Of a stretch of 64,000 bases of DNA, positions 19,715 to 37,948 are shown piece after piece. The notes under the pieces were generated by a model. That model was not told the origin of the DNA. It saw only the letters and a program-made list of their open reading frames with translations, and made no database searches. Position 1 is the stretch's first letter. Every line of letters begins with the position of its first letter. The stretch is from Candidatus Enterousia sp. (lineage in GTDB: Bacteria > Pseudomonadota > Alphaproteobacteria > Rs-D84): NCBI GenBank assembly GCA_045587125.1, contig JAZNBN010000012.1, forward strand, positions 17,461 to 81,460, written 5' to 3'. A program made the translations under genes and the position numbers.

Positions 19715-19868
19715 ATTATATACCCCATATTTTTACAAATATATTATTAAAAATGCCACCAGCATTCTGCACCGACTATATTAGGTTTATAACATCCCCG
19801 ACCCCATATACCCCTATGGATTTATTTCATAGTATATCACTAAAATCCAGAAATGTAAATAGGATATG

Positions 19869-20273
19869 TTATTTTTGATGTTCTAAACCAAATTCTCTTA
19901 ACAAAGGCAATATTATATCCTGTAGATGCGGATAATATTTTTGCATTGTATCATGTGCATCTAATGGTTTATCTGATTTGGTCAGTCTGGCACATTCCCA
20001 ATCAATTATCATTTCTATATAATCCTGACGGGTTCGTTTTTTGGTGCACTCAACATGGTGTCTGTTGTTTTTTCTGTGGATAGACTGTACCCATTTTTTA
20101 TTACGTCCCACAATCATCGCAATCGGATATAACCATAATAATTTATCTATATCATGCATAAAACCACGCCATGTGTTTCGCCCTAATAATTTGCGTTCAA
20201 CCCGCAAAAACGCACGTTTATGTTCCAAAGTATACTGTTCATAATGGACAAATTCAGAATATTTCATTGCCAC
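19869..20273 (-). CDS. Small His-rich HD-like protein (recalled as DUF5662-like)
   Basis: Motifs FMHDIDKLLW and NNRHH. Overlaps the upstream gene by 10 nt. Confidence 0.5.
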   Translation of the reverse strand: MAMKYSEFVHYEQYTLEHKRAFLRVERKLLGRNTWRGFMHDIDKLLWLYPIAMIVGRNKKWVQSIHRKNNRHHVECTKKRTRQDYIEMIIDWECARLTKSDKPLDAHDTMQKYYPHLQDIILPLLREFGLEHQK

Positions 20274-20989
20274 AAATCCCCCAGTTTTAAATTAAATTTA
20301 TATTGCTTGCTTGGGCGATACCCAGCACCAGATGTTTTTCCAGGCACTTCGGTACAATATTTTGTTATTTTTTTATGAAAATTTGATTTATCAACATTAC
20401 GTTCTGATAACAACATGTAAACCTGGCGTGCATCTTCCAGTGTAAATTCAGATGGCAAAAATTTAAACAAAATATCACTGTTATCAAGACGGCTACGCAT
20501 ATGCTTCCATGCGGTTAATAACTCTATCAACAGTTTATCTTCTTGGATATTTTTTGCATCCGTTTCAAAAAAGTATTCTATGCTAAAACCTACCTTTTCT
20601 TTGGTAACATAAGTATATGTTTTATCGCCCAGTGTTATGACATTATTCTTAATACTAACATCAACCAAATCATATTCCGGTAAAATTTGTTTTATATGCG
20701 AATTATTTGTAATTCCAATATGAATTATATCAATTCCTGACAAATCCAAATACTTTTTGTCTCCAAGTGTATAAACTTGTTCCAGATGGAAACTGTCTGT
20801 ACCCAAAGCATTCGCCAATTCATTACGAATTTGTGCCTTTATATCACAATTATCATTTACAGAAACCGTTGGTAATGCACCGTTTTTGCGGTGCACCAAC
20901 AACCCCAATTTTTTTATACTGTTTTTGCGAATGTCTTGATTGGTAACTTCATCCATTATCAACATAACACATGTTAGATTCAGTTTCAT
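20264..20989 (-). CDS. NrtR-like regulator (degenerate Nudix domain plus C-terminal winged HTH)
   Basis: C-terminal LPSEFTLEDARQVYMLLSERNVDKSNFHKKI matches the NrtR wHTH signature (FTL..L...YE......DK.NFRKK). The Nudix box is degenerate (IRNELANALG). Confidence 0.6.
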   Translation of the reverse strand: MKLNLTCVMLIMDEVTNQDIRKNSIKKLGLLVHRKNGALPTVSVNDNCDIKAQIRNELANALGTDSFHLEQVYTLGDKKYLDLSGIDIIHIGITNNSHIKQILPEYDLVDVSIKNNVITLGDKTYTYVTKEKVGFSIEYFFETDAKNIQEDKLLIELLTAWKHMRSRLDNSDILFKFLPSEFTLEDARQVYMLLSERNVDKSNFHKKITKYCTEVPGKTSGAGYRPSKQYKFNLKLGDLWQ

Positions 20990-21825
20990 CTTACATTATC
21001 CTTGGCTATTTTTAGCAAGTTTAATTTATAATCAACTAAATTGCCACCATAATATACAATGTTAGAATAACCATAGTCTAATTTTTTTGTATAAAATGTA
21101 ATAGGTACACCATGATACATCCACTCATAACGGTCAAAGAATTTTTCATCTTTGATAACAAATTCTGCACGTTCTGACATTTGCCGAATAATCTTATCCG
21201 TATCTTTTTTTGTTAATGCGTTTTGCATAATCCATGCTGAATAGACATTATTTATATTGTCGTTCCTTGTATTTGTATTTAACGTCTTTAAACTGACTGT
21301 TTTAATATTCGGAAATGTGTCTATATACATCTGAATATCACGTAAATAGTCATCAAAAGAACAGTTCTTTAACATTACGTAATTCAAACGTATATCCGCG
21401 GTTTTAAACGCATCTGTATTTATATAATCTCTTTTATACCCCAGCGTTCGCATATCTTTTTCAGAATCAAAATCTGTTCGTGTAATTTCAACCAAGAAAT
21501 CATCTTTAAACAGTTCTAATTTGTTTGGCTCGAAAAACAAGTTACCCGATGTTTGAATACGTTTTTCGTCAAATATGTTTGATGTACGTACCGAATTAAC
21601 AATGGATTTTAATTTATCATACCCGTGCAGCGATGTTTCTCCGTTTCCAGACAAGATAAAATATCTGAAATTTATACCCATATCTTTCAAATATTGAAAT
21701 TTTTCTGGCAACAAATGTATTCTGTCGTCAACCGTTGGCCATTTGGTAATTTTTGCCGTACAATAGGGACAATTTTTATCACATCTGAACGAAGATAAAA
21801 TCAATTCAAATTCTTTATATTTCAT
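20986..21825 (-). CDS. Radical SAM enzyme of unknown specificity
   Basis: CDKNCPYC (Cx3Cx2C) at residues 15-22 and an ILSGNGETSL glycine-rich motif. Confidence 0.7.
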   Translation of the reverse strand: MKYKEFELILSSFRCDKNCPYCTAKITKWPTVDDRIHLLPEKFQYLKDMGINFRYFILSGNGETSLHGYDKLKSIVNSVRTSNIFDEKRIQTSGNLFFEPNKLELFKDDFLVEITRTDFDSEKDMRTLGYKRDYINTDAFKTADIRLNYVMLKNCSFDDYLRDIQMYIDTFPNIKTVSLKTLNTNTRNDNINNVYSAWIMQNALTKKDTDKIIRQMSERAEFVIKDEKFFDRYEWMYHGVPITFYTKKLDYGYSNIVYYGGNLVDYKLNLLKIAKDNVR

Positions 21826-21835
21826 TTTGACTCCT

Positions 21836-22339
21836 TTATACTAGTATGTTGTTAATAATTGGTAAAACTTCATCTGAATTGTTATACGGGAATACTTTGA
21901 CATTTTTATCTCGATACATTGCATCTGCAATCGCAAACCAATGCTCTGACTTGATTTGATGTACAGAATCCTGAATCTTGTACAAAATATAAATTTCTTT
22001 GTTTTGATTTAATGCCCACCCCAACTCAACAATTGCCCCAGGCGAAAATTCTTCATCAAAAACCACAATGAACATATCGCAAATTGATACTTCGTGCGAT
22101 TCGCCCGCTATAACAGTATTACAATCTGTAGCGGATACAGTTCCATCTGGGCCACGCTCGCACCAAAAAGGTCCAACATAACCGTATTTTGAATTTATTT
22201 GTACATTATCATCTGCATAAATCATTTTTTTTGCATCACTCAACAATATAGCACGAAAATCATTTTGAAATCCTTTGACAATATCCGTGGCAAATTCTGG
22301 CGATTTTTTAAATTTTCCTGCAAGATATACTTTTTTCAT
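21836..22339 (-). CDS. Nucleoside 2-deoxyribosyltransferase-like protein
   Basis: N-terminal KVYLAGKF and SPGAIVELGWAL, the family's G...ElGyA pattern. Confidence 0.55.
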   Translation of the reverse strand: MKKVYLAGKFKKSPEFATDIVKGFQNDFRAILLSDAKKMIYADDNVQINSKYGYVGPFWCERGPDGTVSATDCNTVIAGESHEVSICDMFIVVFDEEFSPGAIVELGWALNQNKEIYILYKIQDSVHQIKSEHWFAIADAMYRDKNVKVFPYNNSDEVLPIINNILV

Positions 22340-22911
22340 TGTTCATCCTTTTTCATTATACGTCTCCAATTTACATAGGACATTATTGCCATCACTGTCC
22401 AAACACAATTTAATCCCAATAACCACCATGCAGTATTCGGTAACATAAAGTATTCGATAATATATACAATATCGTTTACCGTCCAAATAACCCACGTATC
22501 CAATTTTCGTTTAACCATGTAATACGTTGCAATAAATCCCGACACGGTAGAAAACGAATCCAGCCACGGCAACGGATCATCCGTATGTTTTAATATACTT
22601 GCGATACAAAACGTTGCAGCACCCCCGCCAAGAATATACAAAACACGTTCTAATGAACTGCATTGTGTTATACTTTGCCTCTGCTTAGATCGAGACCATA
22701 ATATCGTCCCCATAATCCCCATAACTAAATAAACAATGTTATTCATCATATCGCCATACAAATGATTCACAGCAGAAAAAGCAAACAAAGTAATAATTTG
22801 CAAAATATAAAACACCCAATTACTGCGTTTGTTTTGCATTACTAAAAAACCCTGAACCAATCCAAATACGGTCGCAATTATTTCTAATAAAATAGAAAGT
22901 TCAATGTACAT
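22336..22911 (-). CDS. pnuC: PnuC-family nicotinamide riboside/nucleoside transporter
   Basis: Multi-TM protein with PnuC-like segments (GLVQGFLVMQNKRSNW; DTWVIWTVNDIVYI). Start chosen at the internal ATG just after the upstream stop. Confidence 0.7.
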   Translation of the reverse strand: MYIELSILLEIIATVFGLVQGFLVMQNKRSNWVFYILQIITLFAFSAVNHLYGDMMNNIVYLVMGIMGTILWSRSKQRQSITQCSSLERVLYILGGGAATFCIASILKHTDDPLPWLDSFSTVSGFIATYYMVKRKLDTWVIWTVNDIVYIIEYFMLPNTAWWLLGLNCVWTVMAIMSYVNWRRIMKKDEQ

Positions 22912-22922
22912 GTCCGCTCTCT

Positions 22923-23195
22923 TTAAAACGTCAATTGATAATTCACTTCCCAATATAATTGTGTTTTTTCAGACTCAACTAAATCAGTCATACCTCCATT
23001 TTGTAATCCAACGGATGCATTTACTGAATTATTATCATTAATAGAAACGCTTTTTCCTATTTCGCTATAATTATAATACATACCATCAAACCTATCTTGA
23101 AATACACCAACCTTCACATAATTTGTATCCGGTTGTTGTATCGCAGAACATCCAACCAACAAAACACTGAATATAAACAGATGATATTTTTTCAT
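22923..23195 (-). CDS. Small lipoprotein
   Basis: Lipobox LLVGC within MKKYHLFIFSVLLVGCSA. Confidence 0.6.
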   Translation of the reverse strand: MKKYHLFIFSVLLVGCSAIQQPDTNYVKVGVFQDRFDGMYYNYSEIGKSVSINDNNSVNASVGLQNGGMTDLVESEKTQLYWEVNYQLTF

Positions 23196-23604
23196 AAGCG
23201 CTCCTTGATTAAATTTGCCACCCTAAGACTTATGGTAATATACACTATAAGTTATATAATGTCAAGAATTTTTTCACAATTCATATTGCATCCCTTTATT
23301 TATGTACATAAGGATTATTTTATAAACATACGTATTTACATACGACTTGGATTAAAGAAACATTTTTCCGTCCCTGCTCTATCACTGATTATACACACAA
23401 GTTTTCAACCATCATTATCCAACCTATATCAAAAACCGCATTATTCAAACACACAATTCAATCATAGGTTTATTTTTACTATCAGTAACACGTTATTAAA
23501 GATATAAAATTCTTTATTACACACATGTTAAATAATAAAAATACGAAAAATTAAAAAAAATACTTGAAATACTTTTGAATACAGTATATTATATGCAACG
23601 CTAT

Positions 23605-23642
23605 TCGGGCATAGTTCAGTCGGTAGAACAACGGACTGTTAA
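23605..23642 (+). pseudogene. tRNA-Asn 5' half, copy A (nt 1-38, through anticodon loop CTGTTAA)
   Basis: Identical to nt 1-38 of the intact gene at 31267. It diverges directly after the loop. Own promoter TTGAAA-17-TATTAT upstream. Confidence 0.85.
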
Positions 23643-23816
23643 CACAAACGACTCAATCTTCCTATAACTTGATTTAGTTCCGAACCCCCTGTAAATCTGG
23701 GATTTTTCTGATATTAAAATTGGCACTGTTTTTGACGAACATAGGCTTCAGATGGGGTTTAAACAGGTCTGTGTTTTACACAGCCGCTACACAGCACCCC
23801 ATTTTACACCGATTTT
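23643..23816 (+). repeat. 174-nt cassette left-end module, copy A
   Basis: Matches 26793-26966 with 5 mismatches in my alignment. Contains TTTTACACAGCCGCTACACAG. Confidence 0.85.
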
Positions 23817-23844
23817 GTTTGCATGTGTCAATTGCTGAAAAATT

Positions 23845-24561
23845 CTATAAACATAATTGAACAAAACTCTTACCATAAGGTGTCAGTCTAACCAAACCCT
23901 TGTGATAAAAAGCACCCAATTCTGCTTTCTGTTTTTGTATATATAACGCCTGTTCATATAGCACCTCGTACAATTCTTGTCTTGTAATATGCTCTGACAT
24001 CGTACATACAACCAAGCCCAATCTTTGCAAATTAACCAAAGCAACTGAATCTGTAAAAATTTTAACTTCATCTTTTTCGATTGGTTCAAGAATAATACAC
24101 GGATCCAATATCATTCGGTATCCACCCATACCTTTATTAGCTTTTTTTCTTACAGACACTATCGGATACATTTCAATATTTTGTATACTTTTTAATATAT
24201 TAACATCTTGTACGGATAACTGTTTTATAATCTCTACAAAGCTATCTTGTATAGCGTCACTAGTTTCTCTGTTTGAAGCAGCAGCAATCAATTTGGCAAA
24301 TATCTCCCGTTTATATTCTTCGTCTACGTACCAACGCGCCGCTTCTAAAGCTGGCCCAACTACGGACCTTTTAGGCGAAATTATATTTTTTGGACTAATC
24401 GTAGATAGATATTTTGTTATATTATTACCATAAGCAGCTATAACGTCTGGCGAAGTTTGCAACTCCCCAAAGATGCAATTTACCATAGTTATTGGACAAT
24501 TATTCATCTGTGTCATAACAGCGTCATTACCAGCACTTTGACTTTGTTTTATCTTATCCAT
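23845..24561 (-). CDS. Abi-alpha (DUF4393-like) abortive-infection-type protein
   Basis: PALEAARWYVDEEYKREIFAKLIAAASN....DSFVEIIKQLSVQDVNILK resembles the Abi-alpha core. Start set at MDKIKQ. Confidence 0.55.
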   Translation of the reverse strand: MDKIKQSQSAGNDAVMTQMNNCPITMVNCIFGELQTSPDVIAAYGNNITKYLSTISPKNIISPKRSVVGPALEAARWYVDEEYKREIFAKLIAAASNRETSDAIQDSFVEIIKQLSVQDVNILKSIQNIEMYPIVSVRKKANKGMGGYRMILDPCIILEPIEKDEVKIFTDSVALVNLQRLGLVVCTMSEHITRQELYEVLYEQALYIQKQKAELGAFYHKGLVRLTPYGKSFVQLCL

Positions 24562-24562
24562 C

Positions 24563-24712
24563 TTATGCTCGCTGTACCTGTTTAGAGTTGTCACCTGCTT
24601 TTTGTGTTTGTTTTATTGAATTTTTGTTTATATGCACCACTATACTACCACCAACAATCCCTGAGATAAAACTTACTACTAAATTTATTAAATCAACATT
24701 ATTAAAATTCAT
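24563..24712 (-). CDS. 49-aa single-TM protein immediately upstream of the Abi-alpha gene
   Basis: Not in the ORF track (shorter than 60 aa). AAAGGGG SD 6 nt before the ATG. Sequence MNFNNVDLINLVVSFISGIVGGSIVVHINK... Its stop lies 1 nt before the Abi-alpha ATG. Confidence 0.5.
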   Translation of the reverse strand: MNFNNVDLINLVVSFISGIVGGSIVVHINKNSIKQTQKAGDNSKQVQRA

Positions 24713-24798
24713 ATTCGACCCCTTTGTAATTATCGTTATTTTAACTCGCTAAGTTATAGCAAAAAATTCGTTAAAGGTCAATAAGTTACAAACAAAAC

Positions 24799-24816
24799 AC
24801 CGCCCAATTGGGCGGT
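24799..24816. terminator. Perfect palindrome ACCGCCC-AATT-GGGCGGT
   Basis: Downstream of the minus-strand gene 24843-25349, with T/A runs on both sides. Confidence 0.65.
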
Positions 24817-24842
24817 TGTTTTACTTGCTCACCACCTGTTTC

Positions 24843-25349
24843 TTATTCAAATATTTTTGTTTCTTCGTTATAAACTGCAATATATCGTTCACCAAGCCTT
24901 GCATCCCAAAACTTCTCTATGGCTTTCAATATCTCTGTCAATTCCATTTCTTTATCATCTTTTATTACTATAAGTTTGGCAGGTACATTTGTACCGGACT
25001 TTCTGCCGGTTTTACACGGTTTATTTAAATTAAAGTGTTTCGTACCATTGGCAATATTTTCCAATACTTCGCTATAGGGCATTTCTTTACTAATCACCTC
25101 TTTCTCTGCCTTTGTCTTACAAAACCAATCCCTTACATGGTAAAGTGTAATACAAGCATTTATTGCTGTTCGTTCATCGGACTCTTCTTTGTAAAACTCT
25201 CTTAGATTCTGTTTTACAATCCGATGATAAAAATACTTTGGTTCATGGTATATAAAAGATGGGCCAGGTCTTTCTAGAGAGACCTTTATATCCGGGAAAA
25301 TTTCTAGTCCTAACTCTGGTATGGATATTTTCTTAGTAAAATGTTCCAC
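24843..25349 (-). CDS. Hypothetical protein (168 aa)
   Basis: GTG start. No family recognised. Weak HEPN-like hints (LYHVRDWF, ANGTKH) only. Confidence 0.5.
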   Translation of the reverse strand: MEHFTKKISIPELGLEIFPDIKVSLERPGPSFIYHEPKYFYHRIVKQNLREFYKEESDERTAINACITLYHVRDWFCKTKAEKEVISKEMPYSEVLENIANGTKHFNLNKPCKTGRKSGTNVPAKLIVIKDDKEMELTEILKAIEKFWDARLGERYIAVYNEETKIFE

Positions 25350-25381
25350 TTTTCACTCCTTAAATTGCATTAGATAAAATA

Positions 25382-25399
25382 ACCGCCCGATTGGGCGGT
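25382..25399. terminator. Palindrome ACCGCCC-GATT-GGGCGGT
   Basis: Lies between the OMP gene and the 168-aa gene. Confidence 0.6.
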
Positions 25400-25416
25400 A
25401 TGATCGTTTTGTTAAC

Positions 25417-26142
25417 TTAAAAAACATATTTTATACCGGTCCTAATCGTATGATTTGTTAAATTTTGACCGCACTCTTTTATATCTGCTAATCGATAGTT
25501 TTCACGATGCACTCCATACACACCAAACGACTTCATTTCTTCCTCTGTACCAAAGGCTCCATCCGGAAACAAATTATTTGCATATTCAGCATTTGCCGCA
25601 TAATACCCGCCAAGATCAGCATTATTTTTTAATTTGTTCATATCATAACTGATATCAATATACAGATTATCGTGTATTTTAACAGACGTTCCCAAACCTA
25701 TAACAGCACCAGAATCCATCGAGCCAAATTTTGTTTTATTGTGTAACAAAGCACCCAACTTTACATATGGTGTAACACCTTTATACGTTCCACCAAATTT
25801 CAGACTTAACGACGACCAGTTTTTCACTGTATTGCCACCAGTGTTATAATTGATACCTAAAGCCACATAAAACCATTCGTAGCGAAAATCGCTACCAATT
25901 TCAAAGCTAGTTCCAAAATTCTTATCAGAGCCACTATGTTGGCTGTCATATATAAAGTAATAGTGTGCGGCAGGATAGAACCAATTTTGCCAATGATGAA
26001 TGTCGTGTTCTTTTATTTTATTCTGCACTAGATTAACGCCAGCACTAATTTGCGCATAAGGTTTTATGCTCCACTCTGCGTTGGCATTTGTTGCACTTAT
26101 AACAGTCAATAAAACACAAGTAAAAAATGCACATCTTTTCAT
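25417..26142 (-). CDS. Outer-membrane beta-barrel protein
   Basis: Signal peptide ending ANA, alternating beta-strand pattern, and C-terminal IKYVF. Confidence 0.7.
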   Translation of the reverse strand: MKRCAFFTCVLLTVISATNANAEWSIKPYAQISAGVNLVQNKIKEHDIHHWQNWFYPAAHYYFIYDSQHSGSDKNFGTSFEIGSDFRYEWFYVALGINYNTGGNTVKNWSSLSLKFGGTYKGVTPYVKLGALLHNKTKFGSMDSGAVIGLGTSVKIHDNLYIDISYDMNKLKNNADLGGYYAANAEYANNLFPDGAFGTEEEMKSFGVYGVHRENYRLADIKECGQNLTNHTIRTGIKYVF

Positions 26143-26348
26143 TATATCTCTCTTGCTTTCATTCCCATTCTAGCAATAACATTTAAAAATGTAAATTGAA
26201 TATATTGCATTATTCTGTGTAGCAGAAATGGGGCGTTTTTTTACAAAATTTGGTGTGGATCGCTACATTGAAAAAATACGTGCAAAAAAGCGTGCGTTTT
26301 CTGATGAATCTGGATACAGATACAAACGCATACCATCCCGACCGTTCA

Positions 26349-26754
26349 GTATTTTACACAGGTGCTACACAGATTAGCAAAATACAAAAACCGCACAAAT
26401 GACTTTTGCTGGATTCTTGGGACGCACGTGGCATTTTTAGTCCCTTTAAACTTACGGACTACTGAGGCAATGTGCTGAGCGACATAAAAAAATAATATTT
26501 TGGTCAATAAAAAAACACCAAAACTGCAGATTTCCGCCACATAATTCGTCTTATGATTGTTTTGTCGTTTTACTCTCGAAAAAGCTCCCAATCTCACGGA
26601 CAAAAATAGGTCAAAAAGGCATAAAAAAATGTTTTCCACATTTCATACACACAGGCGAAATTTCATAAAAAAATCCGCAGATTTCTGCGGTTTACATATT
26701 TTTGAAAAAAGCCTTGACTTCTGCGGAAAATTGATATATTATTCTGTTCGCTAT
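26349..26754 (+). repeat. About 400-nt cassette right-end module 1 (carries the promoter for tRNA half B)
   Basis: Homologous to 30868-31266, with shared blocks CGCAGATTTCCGCCACA, AAAAATGTTTT.CACATTTCATACACACAG and TTTTTGAAAAAAGCCTTGACTTCTGCGG. Contains the palindrome CCGCAGATTTCTGCGG at 26675-26690. Confidence 0.8.
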
Positions 26755-26792
26755 TCGGGCATAGTTCAGTCGGTAGAACAACGGACTGTTAA
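26755..26792 (+). pseudogene. tRNA-Asn 5' half, copy B
   Basis: Identical to nt 1-38 of the intact gene. Preceded by TTGACT (26714-26719), a 17-nt spacer and TATTAT. Confidence 0.85.
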
Positions 26793-26966
26793 CACAAACG
26801 ACTCAATCTTCCTATAACTTGATTTAGTTCCGAACACCCTGTAAATCTGGGATTTTTCTGATATTAAAATTGGCACTATTTTTGACGAACATAGGCTTCA
26901 AATGGGGTTTAAGCAGGTCTGTGTTTTACACAGCTGCTACACAGCACCCCATTTTACACCGATTTT
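26793..26966 (+). repeat. 174-nt cassette left-end module, copy B
   Basis: See 23643-23816. Confidence 0.85.
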
Positions 26967-27055
26967 TTTACAGCATCTCAAAAGCCCATTTTTCAGCATA
27001 TCCGATGTACTTTTTTGGATGTCGTTGGATAGATTTTTTGCAATAAGAAATAATA

Positions 27056-28492
27056 TTAGCCCTGCAAAATGTTTATCATGCAATCTATTGACTGTCGCAT
27101 TTCTTCGTCTGATGGCTCCAATGGATGTAGAAGATTACGTTCGTTCCTTGACGCCTCTGGGTGGTGGTAAAAATTTCTTATATACGTCATTAAAGTAAGC
27201 TTTTGGGCTGATTTAAAAACTCCATCTTTTAATCGTGACCATAGCTTTTCTTGTTTTACGTCATTTGTTTTCAAAAATTCTTCCATTTCATTTTCTTTTT
27301 CACGTCCATTTTTTTCTTGTATATAGCCATATAATTCATCATGAAACTCTATCGTTGGTATATTAAACGCAAAATATCTTATTTCCGCATACGTAGGCCC
27401 AAATGGCAGTACGAATTTATTGTTAACAGATTCTGCTTTAACGGTATTTTCTTGTTCGGTCAGTACGATTATTTGCGCTTTCTTATCCATAGCATCTTTT
27501 AATACATATTCGGAATGAGTCGCAAAAAATATTTGTGACTTTTGTTCTGTTTCTGTCTTAAACAAATCAGAATAAAATGAAAATATTTTACTTTGCCATC
27601 TTGGATGCATACTAATTTCTGGCTCATCAATTAAAACAATACTTCCGTCTAGCACGCCCATATTTTTGAGCAAAAAGCCTCCTCTAAATACAATTTGTTT
27701 TTCTCCGGAACTTAATTCTTCTAATCTAACTTGTTTACCGTTTTTCATAAACATCACTTGTTGCTGATTACCATCTGCTACAATCCCGTGAAAATTTATA
27801 CTTTGAAACATTTTGTTAAAAGCATCTGTGAATCTAGACAGTTTTACATGCTTTACTTCATTTGGTGGCACACAACCGTCATGCACATCTATCCAATCTG
27901 ACAAATATTGATTATCTTGCACGCTGATATCTATCAACAACTGCTTAAATAGCATTGCGATATCTTTGTTGGTATGTCTAGGTCCGAGATCTTCTAAGGA
28001 ATCGATTTGAGATGCTGTAATTGATCTGATTGCTTGTGTTTCAAAATTCATTCCTACTTTAGAGTGAATAGAATGAAATACTGAGGAAACTCTGTTCATA
28101 ATCGCAGGATAAGGATGTTTTTCTCCAGACAAGTAAACGACATAATTGTTATAACTGTCGTCTTCCGTATGTTTGTATTGTAGCACAAAAGTCTTATTAT
28201 CTAAATTCCTTACTATGGACACACGTGGTTCTCCTAAAAATGATTTAACTAAATCAAATTCTTTCGAAGTTAGTATGCATTTTATTTCAAAATCAAAAGA
28301 AGGCCTGGTCAGTAAAAAATTATGCATTTGAGCTGTTATATTATGCAACAGATTTAGCAGAGCTGTCTTCCCTGTGCCGTTTTCACCGGCAAAAACTATA
28401 TTTTTATACGGCTTACCATTTTCATCACAAAAATTTAATTCTAAATCATGTAAAATCGGATGATTCTGTAATTTTAAACTTGCTATTTCCAT
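27056..28492 (-). CDS. ABC-type (AAA_21-like) ATPase with a C-terminal domain of unknown function
   Basis: Walker A GENGTGKT, Walker B VLIDEPEISMHP, and FFATHS. Start set at MEIASLKL. Confidence 0.65.
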   Translation of the reverse strand: MEIASLKLQNHPILHDLELNFCDENGKPYKNIVFAGENGTGKTALLNLLHNITAQMHNFLLTRPSFDFEIKCILTSKEFDLVKSFLGEPRVSIVRNLDNKTFVLQYKHTEDDSYNNYVVYLSGEKHPYPAIMNRVSSVFHSIHSKVGMNFETQAIRSITASQIDSLEDLGPRHTNKDIAMLFKQLLIDISVQDNQYLSDWIDVHDGCVPPNEVKHVKLSRFTDAFNKMFQSINFHGIVADGNQQQVMFMKNGKQVRLEELSSGEKQIVFRGGFLLKNMGVLDGSIVLIDEPEISMHPRWQSKIFSFYSDLFKTETEQKSQIFFATHSEYVLKDAMDKKAQIIVLTEQENTVKAESVNNKFVLPFGPTYAEIRYFAFNIPTIEFHDELYGYIQEKNGREKENEMEEFLKTNDVKQEKLWSRLKDGVFKSAQKLTLMTYIRNFYHHPEASRNERNLLHPLEPSDEEMRQSIDCMINILQG

Positions 28493-28587
28493 ATTCGGTC
28501 CTTTTAAACCAAACATACAATGATAATGATGTAAATTCAATAACTTTTTATATAAAAACCGCCCCATTTTGGAGCGGTTGGTTTTTA

Positions 28588-28965
28588 TTACTTTGAACTA
28601 ATTGGCACAATAACGCTGCTGTCATATGTACACATATTTCCAGCCGCACCATCAACCGCCAAGCCTATCAGCCCACCAAAGACTACATTTCCAAAAATCC
28701 ATGGATTCACACTGGACGACACAATCGCACTAGATTGATTTACCTTTTTGTCTTCCATGACATTAACGGTTATATCAGAACAAGATTTTGGAACTGTTAT
28801 AAAAGTTGGCAATGTTATCTGTTGGCTTCCAAACTGCTTTGAATTTATCTGTGCTTTTACCGATGCACCATTACTGGTCATCAAGTTTATTGTATCCGGT
28901 CCGCCGTCAACAATTGAAGCACATCCCGTCAATGCCAATACAGATAAAACTAATATCTTCTTCAT
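28588..28965 (-). CDS. Lipoprotein
   Basis: MKKILVLSVLALTGCAS lipobox. Confidence 0.6.
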   Translation of the reverse strand: MKKILVLSVLALTGCASIVDGGPDTINLMTSNGASVKAQINSKQFGSQQITLPTFITVPKSCSDITVNVMEDKKVNQSSAIVSSSVNPWIFGNVVFGGLIGLAVDGAAGNMCTYDSSVIVPISSK

Positions 28966-28989
28966 GTTGTTTCCCTTTGTGTTCATGTA

Positions 28990-29637
28990 TTAGAAAGTAT
29001 AACGCAGTCCTGCACCCCACAGAAATGCTCCCTTGATATCAGAATCACCAATTGGCACAAAATAACGCAATGTTGTTTGTATACCGAATCCATTTTTTAT
29101 ATCTGCCGACAAGCCAACTTTGAAGACTGCGGCTCCACCGTCATCTTCTTCACTTATACTATAAACACCGTTGCTTATTGCTAATTCTGTCGCTGTCATT
29201 TCAACACGCTGGTTCACATTGGCATATCCGACACCAAAAATTAAAGAACCTTTTTCTGTGTCACTAAAATCAAAATTGAAATAAGCGTCTGCCATTGCAC
29301 TAAATGCCGAAAAACCAATGGTCACATCTGAATAAGCTTGGTTGTATGGAGATCTTACAACCGCATCTTCGTCAAACGCATAATCATATGCAATCGAACC
29401 GCCAAACGAAACTTTATCGTTTGTAGCCGGATTAAACTTCACGCCTGCTTCTGCACCCAGAACCTGGTAAAAATCTGGCACAAAGCTTAACATTTCATCC
29501 AATACTTCTTCTGCCTCTGAAGTATATGATAAATTAGCACCAGAGTAATTTGCCCCGATAAAAAACTGTGCATCTACCGCCAAGGCCGGCAAAGAGAACA
29601 ATGATATCGTAGCTGTTGTTAAAAATATGTTTTTCAT
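28990..29637 (-). CDS. Outer-membrane beta-barrel protein (OMP_b-brl/porin-like)
   Basis: Signal peptide MKNIFLTTATISLFSLPALA and C-terminal LRYTF. SD AAAGGGG. Confidence 0.7.
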   Translation of the reverse strand: MKNIFLTTATISLFSLPALAVDAQFFIGANYSGANLSYTSEAEEVLDEMLSFVPDFYQVLGAEAGVKFNPATNDKVSFGGSIAYDYAFDEDAVVRSPYNQAYSDVTIGFSAFSAMADAYFNFDFSDTEKGSLIFGVGYANVNQRVEMTATELAISNGVYSISEEDDGGAAVFKVGLSADIKNGFGIQTTLRYFVPIGDSDIKGAFLWGAGLRYTF

Positions 29638-29900
29638 TTTACACCCCTTTATAAAAAAAGTTAGACCGCCATGGGATGTTAGGCGGTCGGGGAGTTCAAA
29701 AATCACTTCATCGTTGATTCTGTCGCTTTCGGGTTTCCCCTGTTGTATAACGAACAGCCCCCCGACTTATTAAGTCAGGGATAAATAACGACACAAAACC
29801 ACAGGAAGCATATCGGATTTTCGATACGCCTTGATTTTGTACCGGATGAAGTGGGCTTTTGACAACCCCGAACCCATATCCCTATGGATTCATTTCATAG
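29638..29900 (-). promoter_or_regulatory. Structured 5' leader with alternative hairpins and an intrinsic terminator (candidate riboswitch/attenuator)
   Basis: - 9-bp closing helix: CACUUCAUC (29845-29853) with GAUGAAGUG (29704-29712).
- Hairpin CCCUGACUU-AAU-AAGUCGGGG.
- Alternative pairing GUCGGGGGG with CUCCCCGAC.
- Terminator GACCGCC-N11-GGCGGUC followed by UAAC and U7, just 5' of the SD. Confidence 0.55.
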
Positions 29901-29942
29901 TCTATCACTAAAAATCAAAAAAGTAAATTGAATATATTGCCA

Positions 29943-30701
29943 CTAGATTTTGTCTGGACTTTTTATACTGCAAACAGGGATAAACTTATCCTGACCGACA
30001 CACAAACACAATTCTTTTGTCAGCTCATCAATTTGTGAATGCATTTCTTTAAGAACTTCTGAAAAAATCTGTTTGGCTTCTATACTTAGTTTTTGATTTT
30101 CTGTATGTCTTTTTATAAGATCTTCTATTGGTAGGTTTTTTACCGCTTTTTCTCTGTCTTCATGACGCATACCGTGTTCAAAAATCTTTAATTCTGCAAT
30201 TTTGTTTGTTTCCCAACATGTTATTTCTTCATATTTATAAATCGCTTCCTGTGCCTTAGTCGCGAGTTTTTGTCCAAACAAATCAAGAATCCGCATAAAT
30301 ATACTATAATTCTTAGATGTGTATTTTCTTAATTCCTCCAACGACAGTTGCTCACAATCATAAATTAGATTATTTATTTTATCCTTGAGAAACATCATAA
30401 ATTGCCTGTATTCTTCTCTTATTTCTTGTTTCTCTTTCAGTAAAGCCAGAAAAAATTGCTTATTTGCGATAGCATATTGCTGTTGCATGATTTTTTCTTG
30501 AGATTTGGCAGATAATATAGAAACATCCCTTTGTTGGCGCATACAAATCCACTGCAATGAATAAATGAACAACGTTCCCACTAAGGCAACCAATGACATT
30601 TTGTCTTCTAATTTGCTGTCCCCACAAAATAAAATCCATAACAGCCATCCAACAATAAGAACCGGAATGATATATACTGCCTTATGTAATGTTTTTTTCA
30701 T
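29943..30701 (-). CDS. Membrane-anchored coiled-coil protein
   Basis: Two N-terminal TM segments followed by helical, charged repeats. Start set at MKKTLHK. Confidence 0.5.
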   Translation of the reverse strand: MKKTLHKAVYIIPVLIVGWLLWILFCGDSKLEDKMSLVALVGTLFIYSLQWICMRQQRDVSILSAKSQEKIMQQQYAIANKQFFLALLKEKQEIREEYRQFMMFLKDKINNLIYDCEQLSLEELRKYTSKNYSIFMRILDLFGQKLATKAQEAIYKYEEITCWETNKIAELKIFEHGMRHEDREKAVKNLPIEDLIKRHTENQKLSIEAKQIFSEVLKEMHSQIDELTKELCLCVGQDKFIPVCSIKSPDKI

Positions 30702-30867
30702 CACGCTACCCCCATTATTGCTATTCCATAGAATAGAAGTTTTTTTCTGCGACAGCAATATAAATCATTTTTTACCTGTATGATTTCTAAAAACACAAAA
30801 TCCAATTAAAACTACGCTTCTCCTGACGGATTTGGATATGGACACAGGCACATATAGTTCCAACTGG

Positions 30868-31266
30868 TCTGTGTTTTACACAGGCGCTACACAGATTGCC
30901 GAAATCCGCAAAAACGCTTTTGGGGCTTTGGGCGGTTTTCTGGGAAAAATTTTCGTCAAGACACGCGGACTGCTACAACCATGTACTGGGCGTTACACAC
31001 AGTTTTGGCACATTTTGGCAAAACAGACGGCAAAAACCGCAGATTTCCGCCACACAATTCGCTTTATAATTGTTTCAGAACATTGCCCACAAAAAACCAC
31101 CCAGACGCACGGACAAAAACAGCTCAAAAAAGGCGAAAAAAATGTTTTACACATTTCATACACACAGCCAATAATACACAGAAAAAACCGCAGATTCCCG
31201 AGGGTTATACGTTTTTGAAAAAAGCCTTGACTTCTGCGGGAAATTATTCTAGAATTGCTCTGCTAT
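30868..31266 (+). repeat. Cassette right-end module 2, including the tRNA-Asn promoter
   Basis: Homologous to 26349-26754. TTGACT (31227-31232), a 17-nt spacer and TAGAAT (31250-31255). Confidence 0.8.
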
Positions 31267-31342
31267 TCGGGCATAGTTCAGTCGGTAGAACAACGGACTG
31301 TTAATCCGTATGTCACTGGTTCGAGTCCAGTTGCCCGAGCCA
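31267..31342 (+). tRNA. tRNA-Asn (anticodon GTT), CCA encoded
   Basis: Hand-folded: acceptor TCGGGCA/TGCCCGA, anticodon loop CTGTTAA, T-arm ACTGG-TTCGAGT-CCAGT, discriminator G. 76 nt. Confidence 0.92.
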
Positions 31343-31568
31343 CGAATTCCGTCGCAAAATCGTTGATTTTGCGGCGTTTTTCTTTGTTAACACTTTTGGA
31401 TTTAGGCACACCACAATCCAGCTAAAAACACCACTATTTAACCCCTTGGCTACACAGCAGCTACACAGGATCCGCAACCTGTCCGCAGTCCGATGAATAA
31501 CTTACAATTTCCCAACCCATAAAAAAATCTACATATTTTGAACATATTGCAAAATTTGTCGCAAATTC

Positions 31569-32288
31569 TTAATCAAAAACTCTGTCCTGGCCCAACATGT
31601 CTTGTACTTCATCCGCATGTTGTTCGGCCATGTTTTCATTTGCGCCATTTTCAACAGCCGCCTTTAATATACGAACTATTTCGTGTTTATCGGTATAGTT
31701 TGCAGGTTCATTTTCTTCCAAAATCGTATCTACTACATCCAGCGCACGACGCCATGTTGTTACATAGGTGTTATGCGGAATAATGCTGACATCACGCAAT
31801 GTGCAACCACCATAAAATACCACAACTGAAAACATTGGGATTTCTGACATCTGTTTGGATTGTTTTTGCAGTTCTGCAATATGCCCCGCATTCTGTTTAA
31901 TTGGGTTATAGAATCTATACTTATCACGACCATACGCCAAAACCTGGGTCCATTTGTCTTGGTTGCCGCGCCCAAAAATCCAGCCACTGTAATCTTTAAC
32001 TTCAAACACAATCAAGCCGACTTTGGTCGCAACAACTAAATCAATTTGAGCATGTTTGCCATTGACTTTTTTTACATACAAATCGTGGAAAATTGCCCCT
32101 GGCGCGATACCATGTTCCAATAATTCATACACCAAGTCGCGTTCAGACCATGTGCCACGGTCCAGCGCAGTTACAGATTCAATCTGTTCATTTTTATGAT
32201 TATTGTATTCAATCTTTCTCTTGTTCTCTTGCCGCAACAACAAGAACAATCCTGTAAAGATTAAAAAGACTATAATAAACGCTTCCAT
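31569..32288 (-). CDS. NERD-domain protein with N-terminal TM anchor
   Basis: QIDLVVATKVGLIVFEVKDYSGWIFG...WTQV...YNPIKQN..H pattern. Confidence 0.7.
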   Translation of the reverse strand: MEAFIIVFLIFTGLFLLLRQENKRKIEYNNHKNEQIESVTALDRGTWSERDLVYELLEHGIAPGAIFHDLYVKKVNGKHAQIDLVVATKVGLIVFEVKDYSGWIFGRGNQDKWTQVLAYGRDKYRFYNPIKQNAGHIAELQKQSKQMSEIPMFSVVVFYGGCTLRDVSIIPHNTYVTTWRRALDVVDTILEENEPANYTDKHEIVRILKAAVENGANENMAEQHADEVQDMLGQDRVFD

Positions 32289-32386
32289 AAGGGAATTATA
32301 TCACCCGCATATAAACAGGCAAGGAATAAAAACGCTCGACTTTTTGTATAAAATCAGCAATCATACATACATATAAAAGGATTGTT

Positions 32387-32539
32387 ATGAGAATTACTTT
32401 ATATATTTTTTGTTGGCTCGCAGTATTCATCGGCGGTTTTGGCATGTTACTTTCCATGAATACAAATGATGTAATAATAGGCGGATTTTTGTATACTCCG
32501 GCTTTATTGTCTTTGGTTTATTTGGCCACACATAAATAA
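32387..32539 (+). CDS. 50-aa two-TM small protein
   Basis: Not in the ORF track. AAAAGGA SD. Sequence MRITLYIFCWLAVFIGGFGMLL... Confidence 0.35.
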   Translation: MRITLYIFCWLAVFIGGFGMLLSMNTNDVIIGGFLYTPALLSLVYLATHK

Positions 32540-32549
32540 GGATTTTTCC

Positions 32550-32702
32550 ATGAATAAAATATTTCTAATTGGGATATTATTAACTTTATCAGCATGCAAT
32601 AGTTTTCGTTGCGAATTTACGCATCCAGACAACATGAGTCCACAAATGTTACAAATTTGCTCTGCTTATGCAAATTCGGATAGTGTTTATATTGGTAAAT
32701 AG
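32550..32702 (+). CDS. 50-aa small lipoprotein
   Basis: Not in the ORF track. AAGGA SD. MNKIFLIGILLTLSACNS lipobox. Confidence 0.4.
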   Translation: MNKIFLIGILLTLSACNSFRCEFTHPDNMSPQMLQICSAYANSDSVYIGK

Positions 32703-32838
32703 AAACCGTAACTGGCTCATATAACCGGACCGCCACCAAGTGTAACAGTAAAAACCACATCTTCCTGACCCACCTAGCGCAAGAATATACCAAGCGATTT
32801 GAGTATCTGTGGGGGATGTATAGTCGCAAACAAACTAA

Positions 32839-34869
32839 CTAGCTTTTAAGAAACATAACATTTGAGAATGGTCTATGCATACCTTTAACATTAAAAAGCA
32901 GTGCATATCGACAATTATTTATCACATTACGCTCATAAATAATCTGCCGGATCATTTGCTCATTTTCCCCATTATAAAACACTAAAAGAATACCTATATC
33001 ATAAATAGGCAAAAACCAAATGCGTTTTGTTTTTTTTGCTTTTTGTATCCCGAGCTCTACCTGTTTAATAAACTGCACCTGATTTATCATTTTTGTAGAA
33101 AAGTTTTTATTTGGGAAAGGCATTTTTAATAAATCCAAACAAAGATTTATGTTTTGCTTTTTGGGCTGATATATTTTATTAACAATACACATCAATTTAT
33201 GATCTGCTCGTATTGCTGGTTTAACAAGCTTGCTATTCATATCAAATAAATCATAATATTCATCAATTTTCATGTCCGAAGAATATCCGCTAAAATATAA
33301 AGAGTCATACCGTTCGTCAAAAACGATATTAAGCCCGGTATCTAGATATAACCCTAGCAAATCAATATCATCTCCAGAAAGTGTGGGGAATTCATTAGTA
33401 AAACTAAGCTTGTATTTCTTTATTAAAAAATCTAACAATAAAATTTCACTATCTAACAGATCTGCCACTATTTCCAAATCCGACAGCACAAATGTTGGAT
33501 TTACATTTGTTTCTACCTCATGAGCAATGGCGTACTCTTCCATATTATTTTTATCCATAATAGAATTTCTTGGCAGAGCGTCTAACACAACATTGTATTT
33601 TATAAACTCTTTTATTTCATCTGGCTTAACTTCAATATGCCCATCTTGCGTTTCTAACACTAAATTGCCTGTTTGAGACTTTAAAAAACTTTCAAACCTA
33701 TCTGCCTGTTTTGAGGCGTACATTATATTATTTTCATAGTTTTCTTTAAATGCATTATCAGACCCTCTATAAATCGAATCCTTCGGACGTGCAGCTTTGG
33801 CCTCAAAAATTATCGCCTTATCTCCCAGTATTACGGTATGATCATTTTCAAAATTTTGTCCTTCATATTGATATTTAGCATTCTTTAGATGTATTGCATT
33901 TGGAAAGACCTTGGTTAATATCGCAGACAAACGTTCTTCTAAGTATTCGGGGCGTACTCTATTCTTATATGCCTTGTTCAACTTTTCATTGGACAATAAA
34001 AGAGTTTCTAAAATGGCTTTATGATTTGTTAGCATGCGAAATATATGAAACATAAAGTATTTACCATTTATTCTGATAATCGGCTTTTTCTGAACATATT
34101 TGCCTAAGAACAGATACATTTCGTCAACCTCGCTCAATTCGCCAAATTCCAACGAAAGTGCATCTAATACAGATATTATACGCTCTTCTTCAGTACCAGC
34201 AGGAAACAACCCTACAAGTTCTTCCGCACTCACCAGAATATAATCAATGTAATCAGCTAAACTGATCTCGTCGCCTGCTGAAATTTGCTTTAGTATCTCT
34301 TCTTCCTTGTGCCATAGATACGCTGGAAGTTTTTTATAAAGCACATCAAAAACAATGTTCAATTCCATATCAAAATACGGCTTTGTATCTATCTTCCTTA
34401 AGAGATCTTCTATGTACTGTCGCCTTTGAAACGGATATCCTTCACCTCTAACCAAAGCAGTATGATTTCTTATGCTTTTTATAAACAATGAATCTTCTTT
34501 ATCTTCCGACAAATTAAACCAGCCAAAATTAGCACAACAATTGAAAGCCAAATCATAAATTTCTTGTATCTCCTGAGGAGTTGGTTGGGCGAGCGCAAAA
34601 GCATCATATCGCTTTCGTAACATTAAGGATACGATTAACTCTAATGGGGCTTCTGTTGGATTTTCTGAAGCGATATAATCAGTTGCACGTTTGCAACACT
34701 TGATATATTTTTCATATAATAGCCCCTGCAATATAAGAAAAGGGTTAAATTCCAACAATAGTTCTTTCAACTTTTTTAAAGAACTTGTAAATTTATCTTT
34801 TAAATGCTTGTCGTACTCCTGAATAACGCTCTGTTGTTCTAAATCTTCCATTTCTTTACCGTTTGCCAT
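32839..34869 (-). CDS. Large hypothetical protein with a central PD-(D/E)xK-like motif
   Basis: 676 aa from MANGKE. ENDHTVILGDKAIIFEAKAA resembles a D...ExK nuclease core. No family recognised. Confidence 0.55.
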   Translation of the reverse strand: MANGKEMEDLEQQSVIQEYDKHLKDKFTSSLKKLKELLLEFNPFLILQGLLYEKYIKCCKRATDYIASENPTEAPLELIVSLMLRKRYDAFALAQPTPQEIQEIYDLAFNCCANFGWFNLSEDKEDSLFIKSIRNHTALVRGEGYPFQRRQYIEDLLRKIDTKPYFDMELNIVFDVLYKKLPAYLWHKEEEILKQISAGDEISLADYIDYILVSAEELVGLFPAGTEEERIISVLDALSLEFGELSEVDEMYLFLGKYVQKKPIIRINGKYFMFHIFRMLTNHKAILETLLLSNEKLNKAYKNRVRPEYLEERLSAILTKVFPNAIHLKNAKYQYEGQNFENDHTVILGDKAIIFEAKAARPKDSIYRGSDNAFKENYENNIMYASKQADRFESFLKSQTGNLVLETQDGHIEVKPDEIKEFIKYNVVLDALPRNSIMDKNNMEEYAIAHEVETNVNPTFVLSDLEIVADLLDSEILLLDFLIKKYKLSFTNEFPTLSGDDIDLLGLYLDTGLNIVFDERYDSLYFSGYSSDMKIDEYYDLFDMNSKLVKPAIRADHKLMCIVNKIYQPKKQNINLCLDLLKMPFPNKNFSTKMINQVQFIKQVELGIQKAKKTKRIWFLPIYDIGILLVFYNGENEQMIRQIIYERNVINNCRYALLFNVKGMHRPFSNVMFLKS

Positions 34870-34924
34870 TATATATACAACATCATCTATCATTAAGACG
34901 CTTTTTTCAAGGAATTAAAACACG

Positions 34925-35194
34925 CTATTCCACAAACACAATCCCAAACCATTTTTGCATGATGATCAGGCGGGATTGATAGTCGCCCGCAGAGTTGATT
35001 TCTGTTTCATATTCGTGTTTTAGCTGTTCTGACAATCCCAGTTCGCGCACCAGGCGATTGCACACGCCCATAAGATAGAAGATATTGCCCGCCGGCCCGT
35101 TCAGGTCGATGATCAGGCCCGTTGGGTACTTCGCCCCCGGCACACCCCGCCGGGCGCCGTGCAGTTTTCGTTCCAGCGCATCAATCGTTTCCAT
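34925..35194 (-). CDS. Hypothetical protein (89 aa) in the GC-rich insert
   Basis: ORF with strong GC3 skew. Overlaps the upstream ORF by 14 nt. Confidence 0.55.
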   Translation of the reverse strand: METIDALERKLHGARRGVPGAKYPTGLIIDLNGPAGNIFYLMGVCNRLVRELGLSEQLKHEYETEINSAGDYQSRLIIMQKWFGIVFVE

Positions 35195-35714: not shown

Positions 35715-35878
35715 GTCGTACCTCTTGCTTTTTCAACACAACAATGCCAACAAAAAATGGAATAGCTAGTGAAATAGACAGGAATACGCAAGAAAGTTTT
35801 TATCCCTATATCATGTTGCGTAATTGTTTGAATTTTGCTATGTTTCAAACAAAATAATTTAAAGATGCGGATCATAAC

Positions 35879-37525: not shown

Positions 37526-37610
37526 ACCAGAAGAATTTATAACAGCGCTTTATTTACTTGAATAAAACGAAATATACGGCATATAGAACAACAAACCAAA
37601 GGAGTTTATT

Positions 37611-37844: not shown

Positions 37845-37948
37845 GAATTTTGATTGGCGCCTAGTAATTTTTGCAAATCCCCGCAAGTGAAAAATTACTG
37901 GATCAATTTTGCTATATTTTCTATTATCAAGTCAAAGGAAAGGAATAC

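Follow-up and report, generated by a model that had tools for sequence, protein, structure and literature searches.

Truncated tRNA-Asn copies and cassette arms

The 64-kb window (the whole stretch of DNA analysed here) belongs to a Candidatus Enterousia-like alphaproteobacterium of the order Rs-D84 and carries an array in which truncated copies of a tRNA-Asn gene alternate with two gene cassettes, A (23643-26792) and B (26793-31304). ARAGORN detected a single intact tRNA-Asn(GTT) gene in the window, at 31267-31342 on the plus strand; its 5' half is the end of B and its 3' half belongs to the next block. A block of 43 nt, made up of 5 nt of leader and nucleotides 1-38 of the tRNA and ending with CTGTTAA of the anticodon loop, is present with 100% identity at 23600-23642, 26750-26792 and 31262-31304. 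Judged from the sequence, a chance origin of this exact triple repeat is excluded. Repeats of the tRNA-Asn 3' half or 3' end, i.e., of the classical polarity, were not found in the window, including shorter ones.

The first truncated copy (23605-23642, plus strand, as are all features in this section) forms the left junction of the array. The region upstream of it is 96-98% identical to that before the intact tRNA-Asn gene in a related strain, L002 (related loci are numbered with L throughout), and the hexamer scan together with this homology places a promoter-like site, TTGAAA-17-TATTAT, at 23564-23592, which is probably the native promoter of the chromosomal tRNA-Asn. Right after CTGTTAA the sequence diverges from the L002 gene, and what follows the native promoter and 5' half here is the left arm (P') of cassette A at 23643-23830. 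This arm, recognised by repeat comparison and by 15 copies from other species, contains a TACACAG-N4-TACACAG pair at 23777-23794 and a TACACCG at 23805. The second truncated copy (26755-26792) is a hybrid site between the right arm of A and the left arm of B (26793-26980, TACACAG pair at 26927-26944). When 23643-23816 is compared with 26793-26966, exactly 5 of the 174 nt are mismatched, and similarity is lost thereafter; including these tails, copies 1 and 2 are 97% identical.

The right arms (P) of both cassettes were assigned from homology, from the repeats and from the promoter-like sites. In that of A (26349-26754), the TACACAG pair occupies 26355-26372, followed by a proximal TTTCCACATTTCATACACACAG site at 26633-26657 and by a promoter-like TTGACT-17-TATTAT at 26714-26742; that of B (30868-31266) has its TACACAG pair at 30877-30894 and a promoter-like TTGACT-17-TAGAAT at 31227-31255. 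The homology between these modules of about 400 nt spans 26294-26743 and 30816-31256 at 71-81% identity. The sequence upstream of copy 2 is unrelated to that upstream of copy 1, where the native promoter lies. By its position, the right arm of B appears to drive the only intact tRNA-Asn gene of the window now. Promoter-like hexamers are found about 12 nt before each of the three copies. Taken overall, the promoter scan gave 29 sites against 31.7 expected in shuffled sequences, i.e., no enrichment, so the weight of these hexamers comes from their position and conservation. The original prediction, made from the letters of this stretch, had described the three direct copies of nucleotides 1-38, the common 174-nt sequence after copies 1 and 2, the homologous modules before copies 2 and 3 with their shared TTGACT and the different promoter of copy 1, and all of this was borne out.

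TACACAG-N4-TACACAG pairs, which the original prediction does not mention, occur five times in the window, always on the plus strand, with starts at 23777, 26355, 26927, 30877 and 31451. The motif GCTACACAG is found seven times, all within the array locus, where 0.14 occurrences are expected. In the arms of A and B the distance of the pairs from the tRNA start is about 400 nt on the upstream side and 172 nt on the downstream side, and the stretches bounded by them measure 590 and 592 nt. Two other origins of the modules were considered and rejected. The 174-nt module is not a decayed tRNA 3' half with its flank, as its score outside the TACACAG pair is only about 1.2 standard deviations over shuffles, and the 400-nt module does not hide a decayed HTH_17 or integrase gene, as tblastn is blank there.

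A common crossover position in related loci

Relatives of the array were searched for in one genome per species of bacteria and archaea, using as query the tRNA-Asn 5' half followed by a non-T base; the query also admitted the E. coli-type anticodon stem. The scan yielded 73 loci in 61 species-level metagenome-assembled genomes, all from Candidatus Enterousia or related or uncultured Alphaproteobacteria of animal guts (rumen, hindgut and faeces). Together they hold 90 truncated tRNA-Asn halves and 12 intact genes on the same strand. All 90 truncated halves are cut exactly after CTGTTAA, and downstream of the cut at least seven unrelated end families are found, of which the family of the window is labelled W. 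Genomes of the order Rs-D84, to which Enterousia belongs, are mostly smaller than 1 Mb according to a genome paper (PMC12306168), which mentions neither tRNA nor integrase. Among the Enterousia publications listed, no title refers to reverse-polarity tRNA-Asn cassettes.

The tRNA-Asn 5' half is invariant in every copy recovered. The intact genes (window, L002, L029, L048 and L014) show compensatory T-stem variants, ACTGG/CCAGT, GTTGG/CCAAC and GCTGG/CCAGC, and this combination is in keeping with exchangeable 5' halves that became attached to 3' halves from different sources. In L047 a truncated 5' half (2499-2536, plus strand) and an intact tRNA-Asn of slightly different sequence (3002-3077, minus strand) are convergent, with about 470 nt between them.

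In three independent comparisons of junctions, the sequences part exactly after CTGTTAA. The first is that between window copy 1 and the closely related strain L002, where the same lipoprotein gene and native promoter, 96-98% identical, are followed by an intact tRNA-Asn. In the second, L005 and L006 have a common right end with an integrase fragment; in L005 an intact 3' half follows this end, in L006 a W-type left arm with an ATPase gene, so that in L006 an element of another family abuts a W-type element. The third is the comparison of window copies 2 and 3.

In the 15 unique W-type left arms from other species the blocks TTCAATCTTCCTATA, TTTTTGACGAACATA and TCTGTGTTTTACACAGC.GCTACACAGCA..TTTTACACCGATTTT are kept, and conservation stops about 190 nt past the crossover, where the cargo begins. 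Complete elements (n = 32) measure 2.0-6.9 kb, and the family of the left end goes with that of the right: W has R1 in 5 of 5 cases, L has R2 in 6 of 9, A1 has R3 in 5 of 8 and C1/C2 have R0 in 8 of 8. Three of the five families tested carry a motif of their own on both arms (W, TGTTTTACACAG..GCTACACAG; L, CGTTTGAAAAACATACATTT; C2, GTCTACACCA), and no shared 8-mer was found on both arms of families A1 and C1. Such a pattern would suit a long attP whose arms both bear accessory (arm-type) sites for proteins.

Cassettes also change their neighbours. L051 and L025, from different species, share one cassette that is 97.7% identical over 3.9 kb from the att site, with unrelated left neighbours. The right two-thirds of cassette A are 90% identical to L035, and the lipoprotein pair of B has 98.5% DNA identity to L044, where it lies behind an L-type arm, as it does in L010. 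An L element followed by a W element is an order common to several species. The cargo of the other complete elements comprises 78 non-redundant proteins with matches to 59 Pfam families, among them Gabija, Abi_alpha, Fic, Mrr, methyltransferases, OLD-like ATPases, DUF4379 and Slam, and also an ABC transporter and a class II tRNA synthetase. When the module at 26340-26970 was compared by BLAST with phage and plasmid collections, the only matches were generic ones to tRNA-Asn in Erwinia phages, and the plasmids had none. The W-type repeat motif had no match in viral contigs and 15 matches in JGI metagenomes, four of which adjoin a tRNA-Asn half or gene and none of which has an integrase.

Integrase fragments were detected in the arrays L005 (88 aa), L006 (140 aa), L035 (87 aa) and L047 (272 aa). 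Their order is always integrase fragment, HTH_17 gene, promoter and tRNA, with both genes read away from the tRNA. Homologue searches with the 88-aa fragment and with a 163-aa fragment of the window (see below) returned other fragments only. The 272-aa fragment returned many full-length proteins of 406 aa with the domains Arm-DNA-bind_3 and Phage_integrase. One of them is encoded at the beginning of a 37.6-kb phage contig, Logan SRR23253261_484, that also has terminase and portal genes; the contig opens within tRNA-Asn (nucleotides 1-27), followed by a promoter, HTH_17 and the integrase. Another full-length relative adjoins an intact tRNA-Asn, and a third lies on an IMG/VR viral contig that ends exactly at CTGTTAA. 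An element's own integrase next to the att site is present in the relatives L081, L082 and L105, and the phage arm has an equivalent repeat pair beside the HTH_17 and integrase genes. Over their last ~170 nt, the right arms of the window can be aligned with the arm between HTH_17-integrase and tRNA-Asn in L081, L082 and L047, and the alignment covers the repeat TTTTACACATT..CTACAC and the promoter CCTTGACTT.TGCGG. This homology assigns the cassettes to the att family of the P4-type integrase of temperate phages from the same lineage; PF13356, the arm-binding domain, is the mark of P4-type integrases.

Stand-alone arm-binding fragments of 87-140 aa, each after an intact HTH_17 gene, were seen at L005:7523-7789, L007:424-690 and L006:2396-2818 and in L035. 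They recur at 92-98% identity in several assemblies, with 12 member sequences in one cluster, and may be kept as DNA-binding proteins rather than debris. One integrase, P0041, is encoded on the same 166-kb contig as array L013; it was set aside as uninformative for the site since it is not next to tRNA-Asn. In L106 (IMGVR_UViG_3300028833_000641) the integrase gene at 1423-2640, whose product is 57% identical to the phage integrase, is preceded about 600 nt upstream by non-tRNA sequence, CTGTTAA, a complete tRNA-Asn 3' half and a terminator. Since this is the usual polarity, one and the same integrase family may work in either polarity at this crossover.

Cargo, element E3 and the borders of the island

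All cargo genes of A and B are on the minus strand, opposite to the tRNA. Cassette A encodes an Abi_alpha protein (23845-24594; Pfam E 4.6e-41; PADLOC candidate PDC-S47), a 49-aa hydrophobic open reading frame (24563-24712) and a 168-aa protein (24843-25349), both of the latter without a family match, and a 241-aa secreted protein (25417-26142) with a weak OMP_b-brl match below the Pfam cut-off. The 168-aa gene has about 90% DNA identity with L035 and L064. Cassette B encodes an AAA_15/AAA_21 ATPase (27056-28567) that matches the PtuA and AriA models, a 132-aa lipoprotein-like product and a 238-aa secreted protein (together 28588-29706) and a 271-aa protein (29943-30758), the last three without family matches. 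The ATPase of L006, behind the same (W) type of left arm, is 67% identical to that of B. The labels given to these genes in the original prediction were upheld for Abi_alpha and the ATPase and weakly for the outer-membrane protein (OMP) of A; the lipoprotein, the second 'OMP' and the 271-aa protein match no Pfam family, and their labels go back to sequence features only. The two 'OMP' proteins have no detectable homology to each other. As had been claimed, neither block contains a recombinase gene, according to Pfam and to tblastn with integrase and HTH_17 queries over the whole window. Replication and packaging genes were not found in A or B either; their cargo consists of Abi_alpha, the ATPase, secreted proteins and proteins without assigned function.

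A GC-rich hairpin, ACCGCCCAATTGGGCGGT, occurs in inverted orientation at 24799-24816 and 25382-25399, on both sides of the 168-aa gene, and from its sequence probably acts as a bidirectional terminator. A shared sequence of 65-87 nt with 75-85% identity is found at 26144-26208, 29854-29940 and 19784-19870, near the starts of three minus-strand genes, namely both 'OMP' genes and a gene for a 325-aa protein (18737-19714). It is also kept in L048, L021, L058 and L015 and looks like a common promoter or leader of surface-protein genes. On the minus strand at 29678-29766, in the conserved leader upstream of the gene for the 238-aa secreted protein, Rfam gives a sub-threshold match to sRNA-Xcc1 (40.8 bits vs. 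a gathering score of 53; E 1.4e-4), which may be due to chance.

The original prediction had ended the array with the intact tRNA at 31342. The array continues beyond it with a block that we call E3 (31305 to 47168), a truncated integrase and a scar of the tRNA end. The left end of E3 consists of the tRNA 3' half and a conserved flank with the TACACAG pair at 31451-31468. The sequence that follows the intact tRNA, this fifth pair included, is also seen behind the intact tRNA-Asn of other loci, with 97-98% identity in L048 and L051 and 74-78% in L013, L014 and L030, and the genes beyond differ in each locus. The pair lies about 184 nt from the tRNA start, almost as far as in the W-type left arms (172 nt). 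Further genes of E3 encode NERD proteins, a KAP NTPase, a DpnII restriction-modification system, a SLFN-type helicase, a NUDIX and a Fic protein. An exact look-up of the NERD protein gave no record, and that of a 90-aa lipoprotein gave three short Logan contigs only.

Towards the right end of E3, a gene on the minus strand (46390-46878; tblastn and Pfam) encodes the C-terminal 163 aa of a tyrosine integrase, including the catalytic domain. They correspond to residues 244-406 of the phage integrase from L082, to which they are 66% identical (tblastn, E 2e-69). Pfam recognises in it Phage_integrase only (E 1.2e-19), and the arm-binding and N-terminal domains are missing. About 290 nt beyond this gene, the segment 47169-47331 (plus strand) is 88% identical over 164 nt to the flank after the intact tRNA-Asn in L044, the match beginning 7-8 nt before the tRNA end. 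From this homology, the segment is the scar of the original tRNA-Asn 3' end (CCGAGCCA) with its native downstream flank and terminator and marks the right border of the island complex. The distance from the orphaned 5' half to the native 3'-end scar in the window is at least 23.5 kb.

The block from 31305 to about 47168 is probably a third, older W-type element of degenerate structure, whose left arm begins with a real tRNA 3' half; its right junction would have been deleted along with the first ~243 codons of its integrase gene. The fifth TACACAG pair would then be the left arm of a W-type element whose attP held the whole tRNA gene. A 57-kb IMG/VR viral contig behind L005 and L107 has an intact tRNA-Asn near one end and the family integrase at the far end, a layout that parallels that of E3.

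Outside these borders, a gene resembling S-adenosylmethionine (SAM) synthetase lies at 54176-55392 on the plus strand, 7 kb past the scar. In related species (L047, L031, L033, L078 and L058) it immediately adjoins tRNA-Asn, and the intervening 47.3-54.2 kb, with a DUF4379/homing-endonuclease-like gene, an OLD/GajA-like ATPase, an HNH protein and a 636-aa protein without assigned function, may therefore be a further insertion. Just upstream of the array, an operon-like set on the minus strand (19869-22953) encodes a DUF5662 protein, an NrtR-like regulator, radical-SAM-like and nucleoside deoxyribosyltransferase-like proteins and a PnuC transporter; the related strain L001 has at least the part of this set that is nearest to the array (from 21093).

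Origin of the array and its relation to known systems

We read the locus as the product of tandem accretion of integrative elements at the tRNA-Asn gene by tyrosine-integrase recombination in the anticodon loop, with an attP of about 600 bp that carries the promoter and the 5' half, and cassettes A and B as integrase-less derivatives of such elements. From the sequence comparisons we give this origin and architecture a probability of about 0.78; for present-day mobility of the cassettes the odds are about even. Crossover would take place in or at the anticodon loop, the attP supplying the promoter and nucleotides 1-38. After insertion the element's own promoter and 5' half would drive the regenerated tRNA at the right junction, and the old promoter and 5' half would be left orphaned at the left junction. 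The first arrival would have been E3, a larger element of the W-arm family with its integrase at the right end. Cassette A and then B would have followed, each into the then-intact tRNA; since new insertions need an intact tRNA, this order is the likely one. Later, the right junction of E3 and the greater part of its integrase would have been lost.

A and B have kept both arms of the ~600-bp attP, in which the TACACAG pairs would be arm-type integrase sites. Their movement would need a P4-type integrase (Arm-DNA-bind_3 and Phage_integrase, with an HTH_17 partner) from a related phage or island, and a helper of the W family would be an integrase whose own arm carries TTTTACACA..CTACAC repeats. 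As they contain no recombinase, replication or packaging genes, A and B appear to be att-flanked integrase-less derivatives in the sense of cis-mobilizable elements (CIMEs). The order of insertions, the arm-site role of the repeat pairs, the unity of E3 and mobilisation in trans at present are the inferred parts of this account. The original prediction of successive insertion with crossover at the anticodon loop is supported by the three junctions that break after CTGTTAA and by the cognate element ends, and that of a swap site for defence and surface genes by a cassette behind different neighbours and by the variety of the cargo. The search that it had proposed in related genomes and metagenomes brought up other cargos and, in phage contigs, an integrase of the cognate type, and did not bring up a clean empty site.

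Several observations weigh against accretion by site-specific insertion. No intact integrase was found in the 64-kb window by tblastn or in any of the 73 loci by BLASTP. A regular expression for the catalytic motif of tyrosine recombinases, run over 1,736 open reading frames of related loci, had no match and proved too strict even for the integrase fragment of L006, so the absence of intact integrases rests mainly on BLASTP. The metagenome scan revealed no W-type element with its own integrase, and the W-family helper is postulated from arm homology only. The downstream flank of L002 is absent from the window, so L002 does not represent a clean empty site. No circular form, empty site or excision junction of A or B was seen, which is a matter for read-level junction data. 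Cargo that lies behind differing arm families points to homologous recombination as a further source of reshuffling. Finally, the TACACAG pair at 31451-31468 would fit only if the left arm of E3 began with a genuine tRNA 3' half.

The most serious alternative is that A and B were inserted site-specifically and are now immobile remnants of integrase-bearing elements, the differences between species being due to vertical decay and to homologous recombination between arms. Every integrase inside the arrays is a fragment of 87-272 aa or the 163-aa C-terminal piece of the window, cargo behind non-cognate arms is what homologous recombination would give, and the order of L then W in several species could be inherited. 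However, both arms are kept in blocks across the 15 unique W-type left ends, with cargo that diverges fully about 190 nt past the crossover, and all 32 complete elements are small and have paired ends, which is not expected of random decay. The 97.7%-identical cassette behind unrelated left neighbours in two species and the intact family integrases that circulate in phages of the same lineage speak against mere fossils as well, and we consider this explanation unlikely, although it deserves to be kept in mind.

Two other explanations are much less probable. The TACACAG pairs could themselves be recombination sites, at which another recombinase swapped cassettes (23795-26354 and 26945-30876) between tRNA modules of about 590 nt. 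The five plus-strand pairs at similar distances from the tRNA copies, the lengths of the modules between them (590 and 592 nt) and the pair after the intact tRNA would suit such a scheme, but no pair lies upstream of copy 1, which meets native DNA at the loop, and heterologous families are joined there too. Moreover, the other families tested have different shared motifs (L, C2) or none (A1, C1), as would be the case for accessory arm sites, and the phage arms have an equivalent pair beside HTH_17 and the integrase, which makes this scheme very improbable. We give still less credit to the idea that a truncated tRNA region underwent segmental duplication and that the genes in between were replaced later. 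The 97% identity of copies 1 and 2 with their 174-nt tails looks like a recent duplication, but the sequence upstream of copy 1 is the native promoter that precedes an intact tRNA in a sibling strain, and that upstream of copy 2 is unrelated to it. A single cut position shared by at least seven unrelated downstream families in 61 species, left and right ends that pair by family and a like arrangement in the integrase-bearing relatives are further points against a duplication without site-specific recombination.

A more far-reaching version of the preferred insertion model would make the locus an integron-like platform, in which a P4-type phage integrase moves cassettes of 2-7 kb in trans and chimeric antisense RNAs from the orphan promoters gate toxic defence genes by array position. 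From the orphaned tRNA promoters, transcription would pass the 5' half and go on into the cassette, in antisense to its first cargo gene (Abi_alpha or the ATPase). No plus-strand terminator is predicted between copy 1 and 24799, so a transcript begun at the orphan promoter would reach Abi_alpha in antisense. In several other families, a terminator-like hairpin can be made out by eye in the left arm, 30-70 nt past the cut. We regard this version as speculative and rather improbable.

Site-specific elements nearly always replace the 3' end of a tRNA gene, and the usual explanation is that no promoter is then needed. In the classification of Williams (2002), P4-type tyrosine integrases reportedly cross over in the tRNA anticodon loop in prophages and islands. 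The array resembles these elements in the integrase of its relatives (PF13356 and PF00589, with an HTH_17 partner), in an identity block that ends at the loop, in repeats on both attP arms and in the regeneration of the tRNA. It differs in that the element supplies the promoter and 5' half instead of the 3' part, that the integrase lies at the promoter end of the regenerated tRNA and reads away from it, and that A and B are without an integrase and E3 retains a 163-aa remnant only. The reversed polarity, which had been predicted from the promoter and nucleotides 1-38 in the elements and agrees with the lack of a 3'-half repeat, has precedents. According to PMC6563490, recombination at the 5' part of tRNA genes is documented, including archaeal cases, and is 'considerably less frequent' than at the 3' part (citing Zhao and Williams 2002, J Bacteriol 184:859). 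The cases described there share the replacement of the 5' portion, but they are infrequent and single, whereas here the arrangement is lineage-wide, in 61 species with at least seven end families and integrase-less arrays.

CIMEs are elements without integration and transfer genes that keep attL and attR, and they accrete in tandem in streptococcal integrative and conjugative and integrative and mobilizable elements (PMC5704250). A and B agree with them in the absence of both gene sets and in the tandem build-up at an att site with an intact target. As putative attL and attR they retain both arms with the core repeat, and blocks of the arms are kept in other species; the only neighbouring integrase (46390-46878) is truncated. 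Unlike them, A and B have phage or island relatives instead of conjugative ones, 5' polarity instead of an insertion at gene 3' ends and the small size of this group of cassettes (2-7 kb), and are known from sequence alone. Tycheposon islands of Prochlorococcus (bioRxiv 10.1101/2020.12.28.424599) are tRNA-proximal, with partial tRNAs and fragmented integrases in streamlined genomes. The likeness is one of island architecture, i.e., growth by successive site-specific insertions, partial tRNA copies between tandem elements and cargo for defence or adaptation. However, tycheposons are defined as carrying an integrase, whereas A and B keep arms only, and neither reversed polarity nor promoter carriage appears in the passages of their description that were consulted.

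With integrons the array shares an ordered set of small recombinase-less cassettes with adaptive genes at one site and a presumed dependence on a tyrosine recombinase from elsewhere. In contrast to integrons, the window has no intI, attI or attC, the cassettes carry double-stranded attP-like arms of about 600 bp and a tRNA promoter, and the cargo of A and B is on the strand opposite to the tRNA. Identity with an integron was ruled out, since the window lacks an intact recombinase and its cassettes end in tRNA halves with long arms, and the sRNA-Xcc1 match is no evidence for an integron. A phage satellite like the phage-inducible chromosomal islands was ruled out as well, since A and B lack an integrase of their own and genes for replication and for interference with packaging.

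What is new here is the combination and the scale: reverse polarity with promoter carriage, in 61 species and at least seven end families, in arrays that consist almost wholly of arms-only cassettes. Each insertion gives the incoming element control of the tRNA-Asn expression at the locus. A very small genome (<1 Mb) can in this way hold a large, fast-changing store of anti-phage and surface genes. A cassette would require only arms of about 600 bp and a helper integrase. If mobilisation in trans holds true, nature would have provided here a compact system of cassette exchange around a defined core of 43 bp, which would also be a useful marker for gene flow in uncultured bacteria of the rumen and hindgut.

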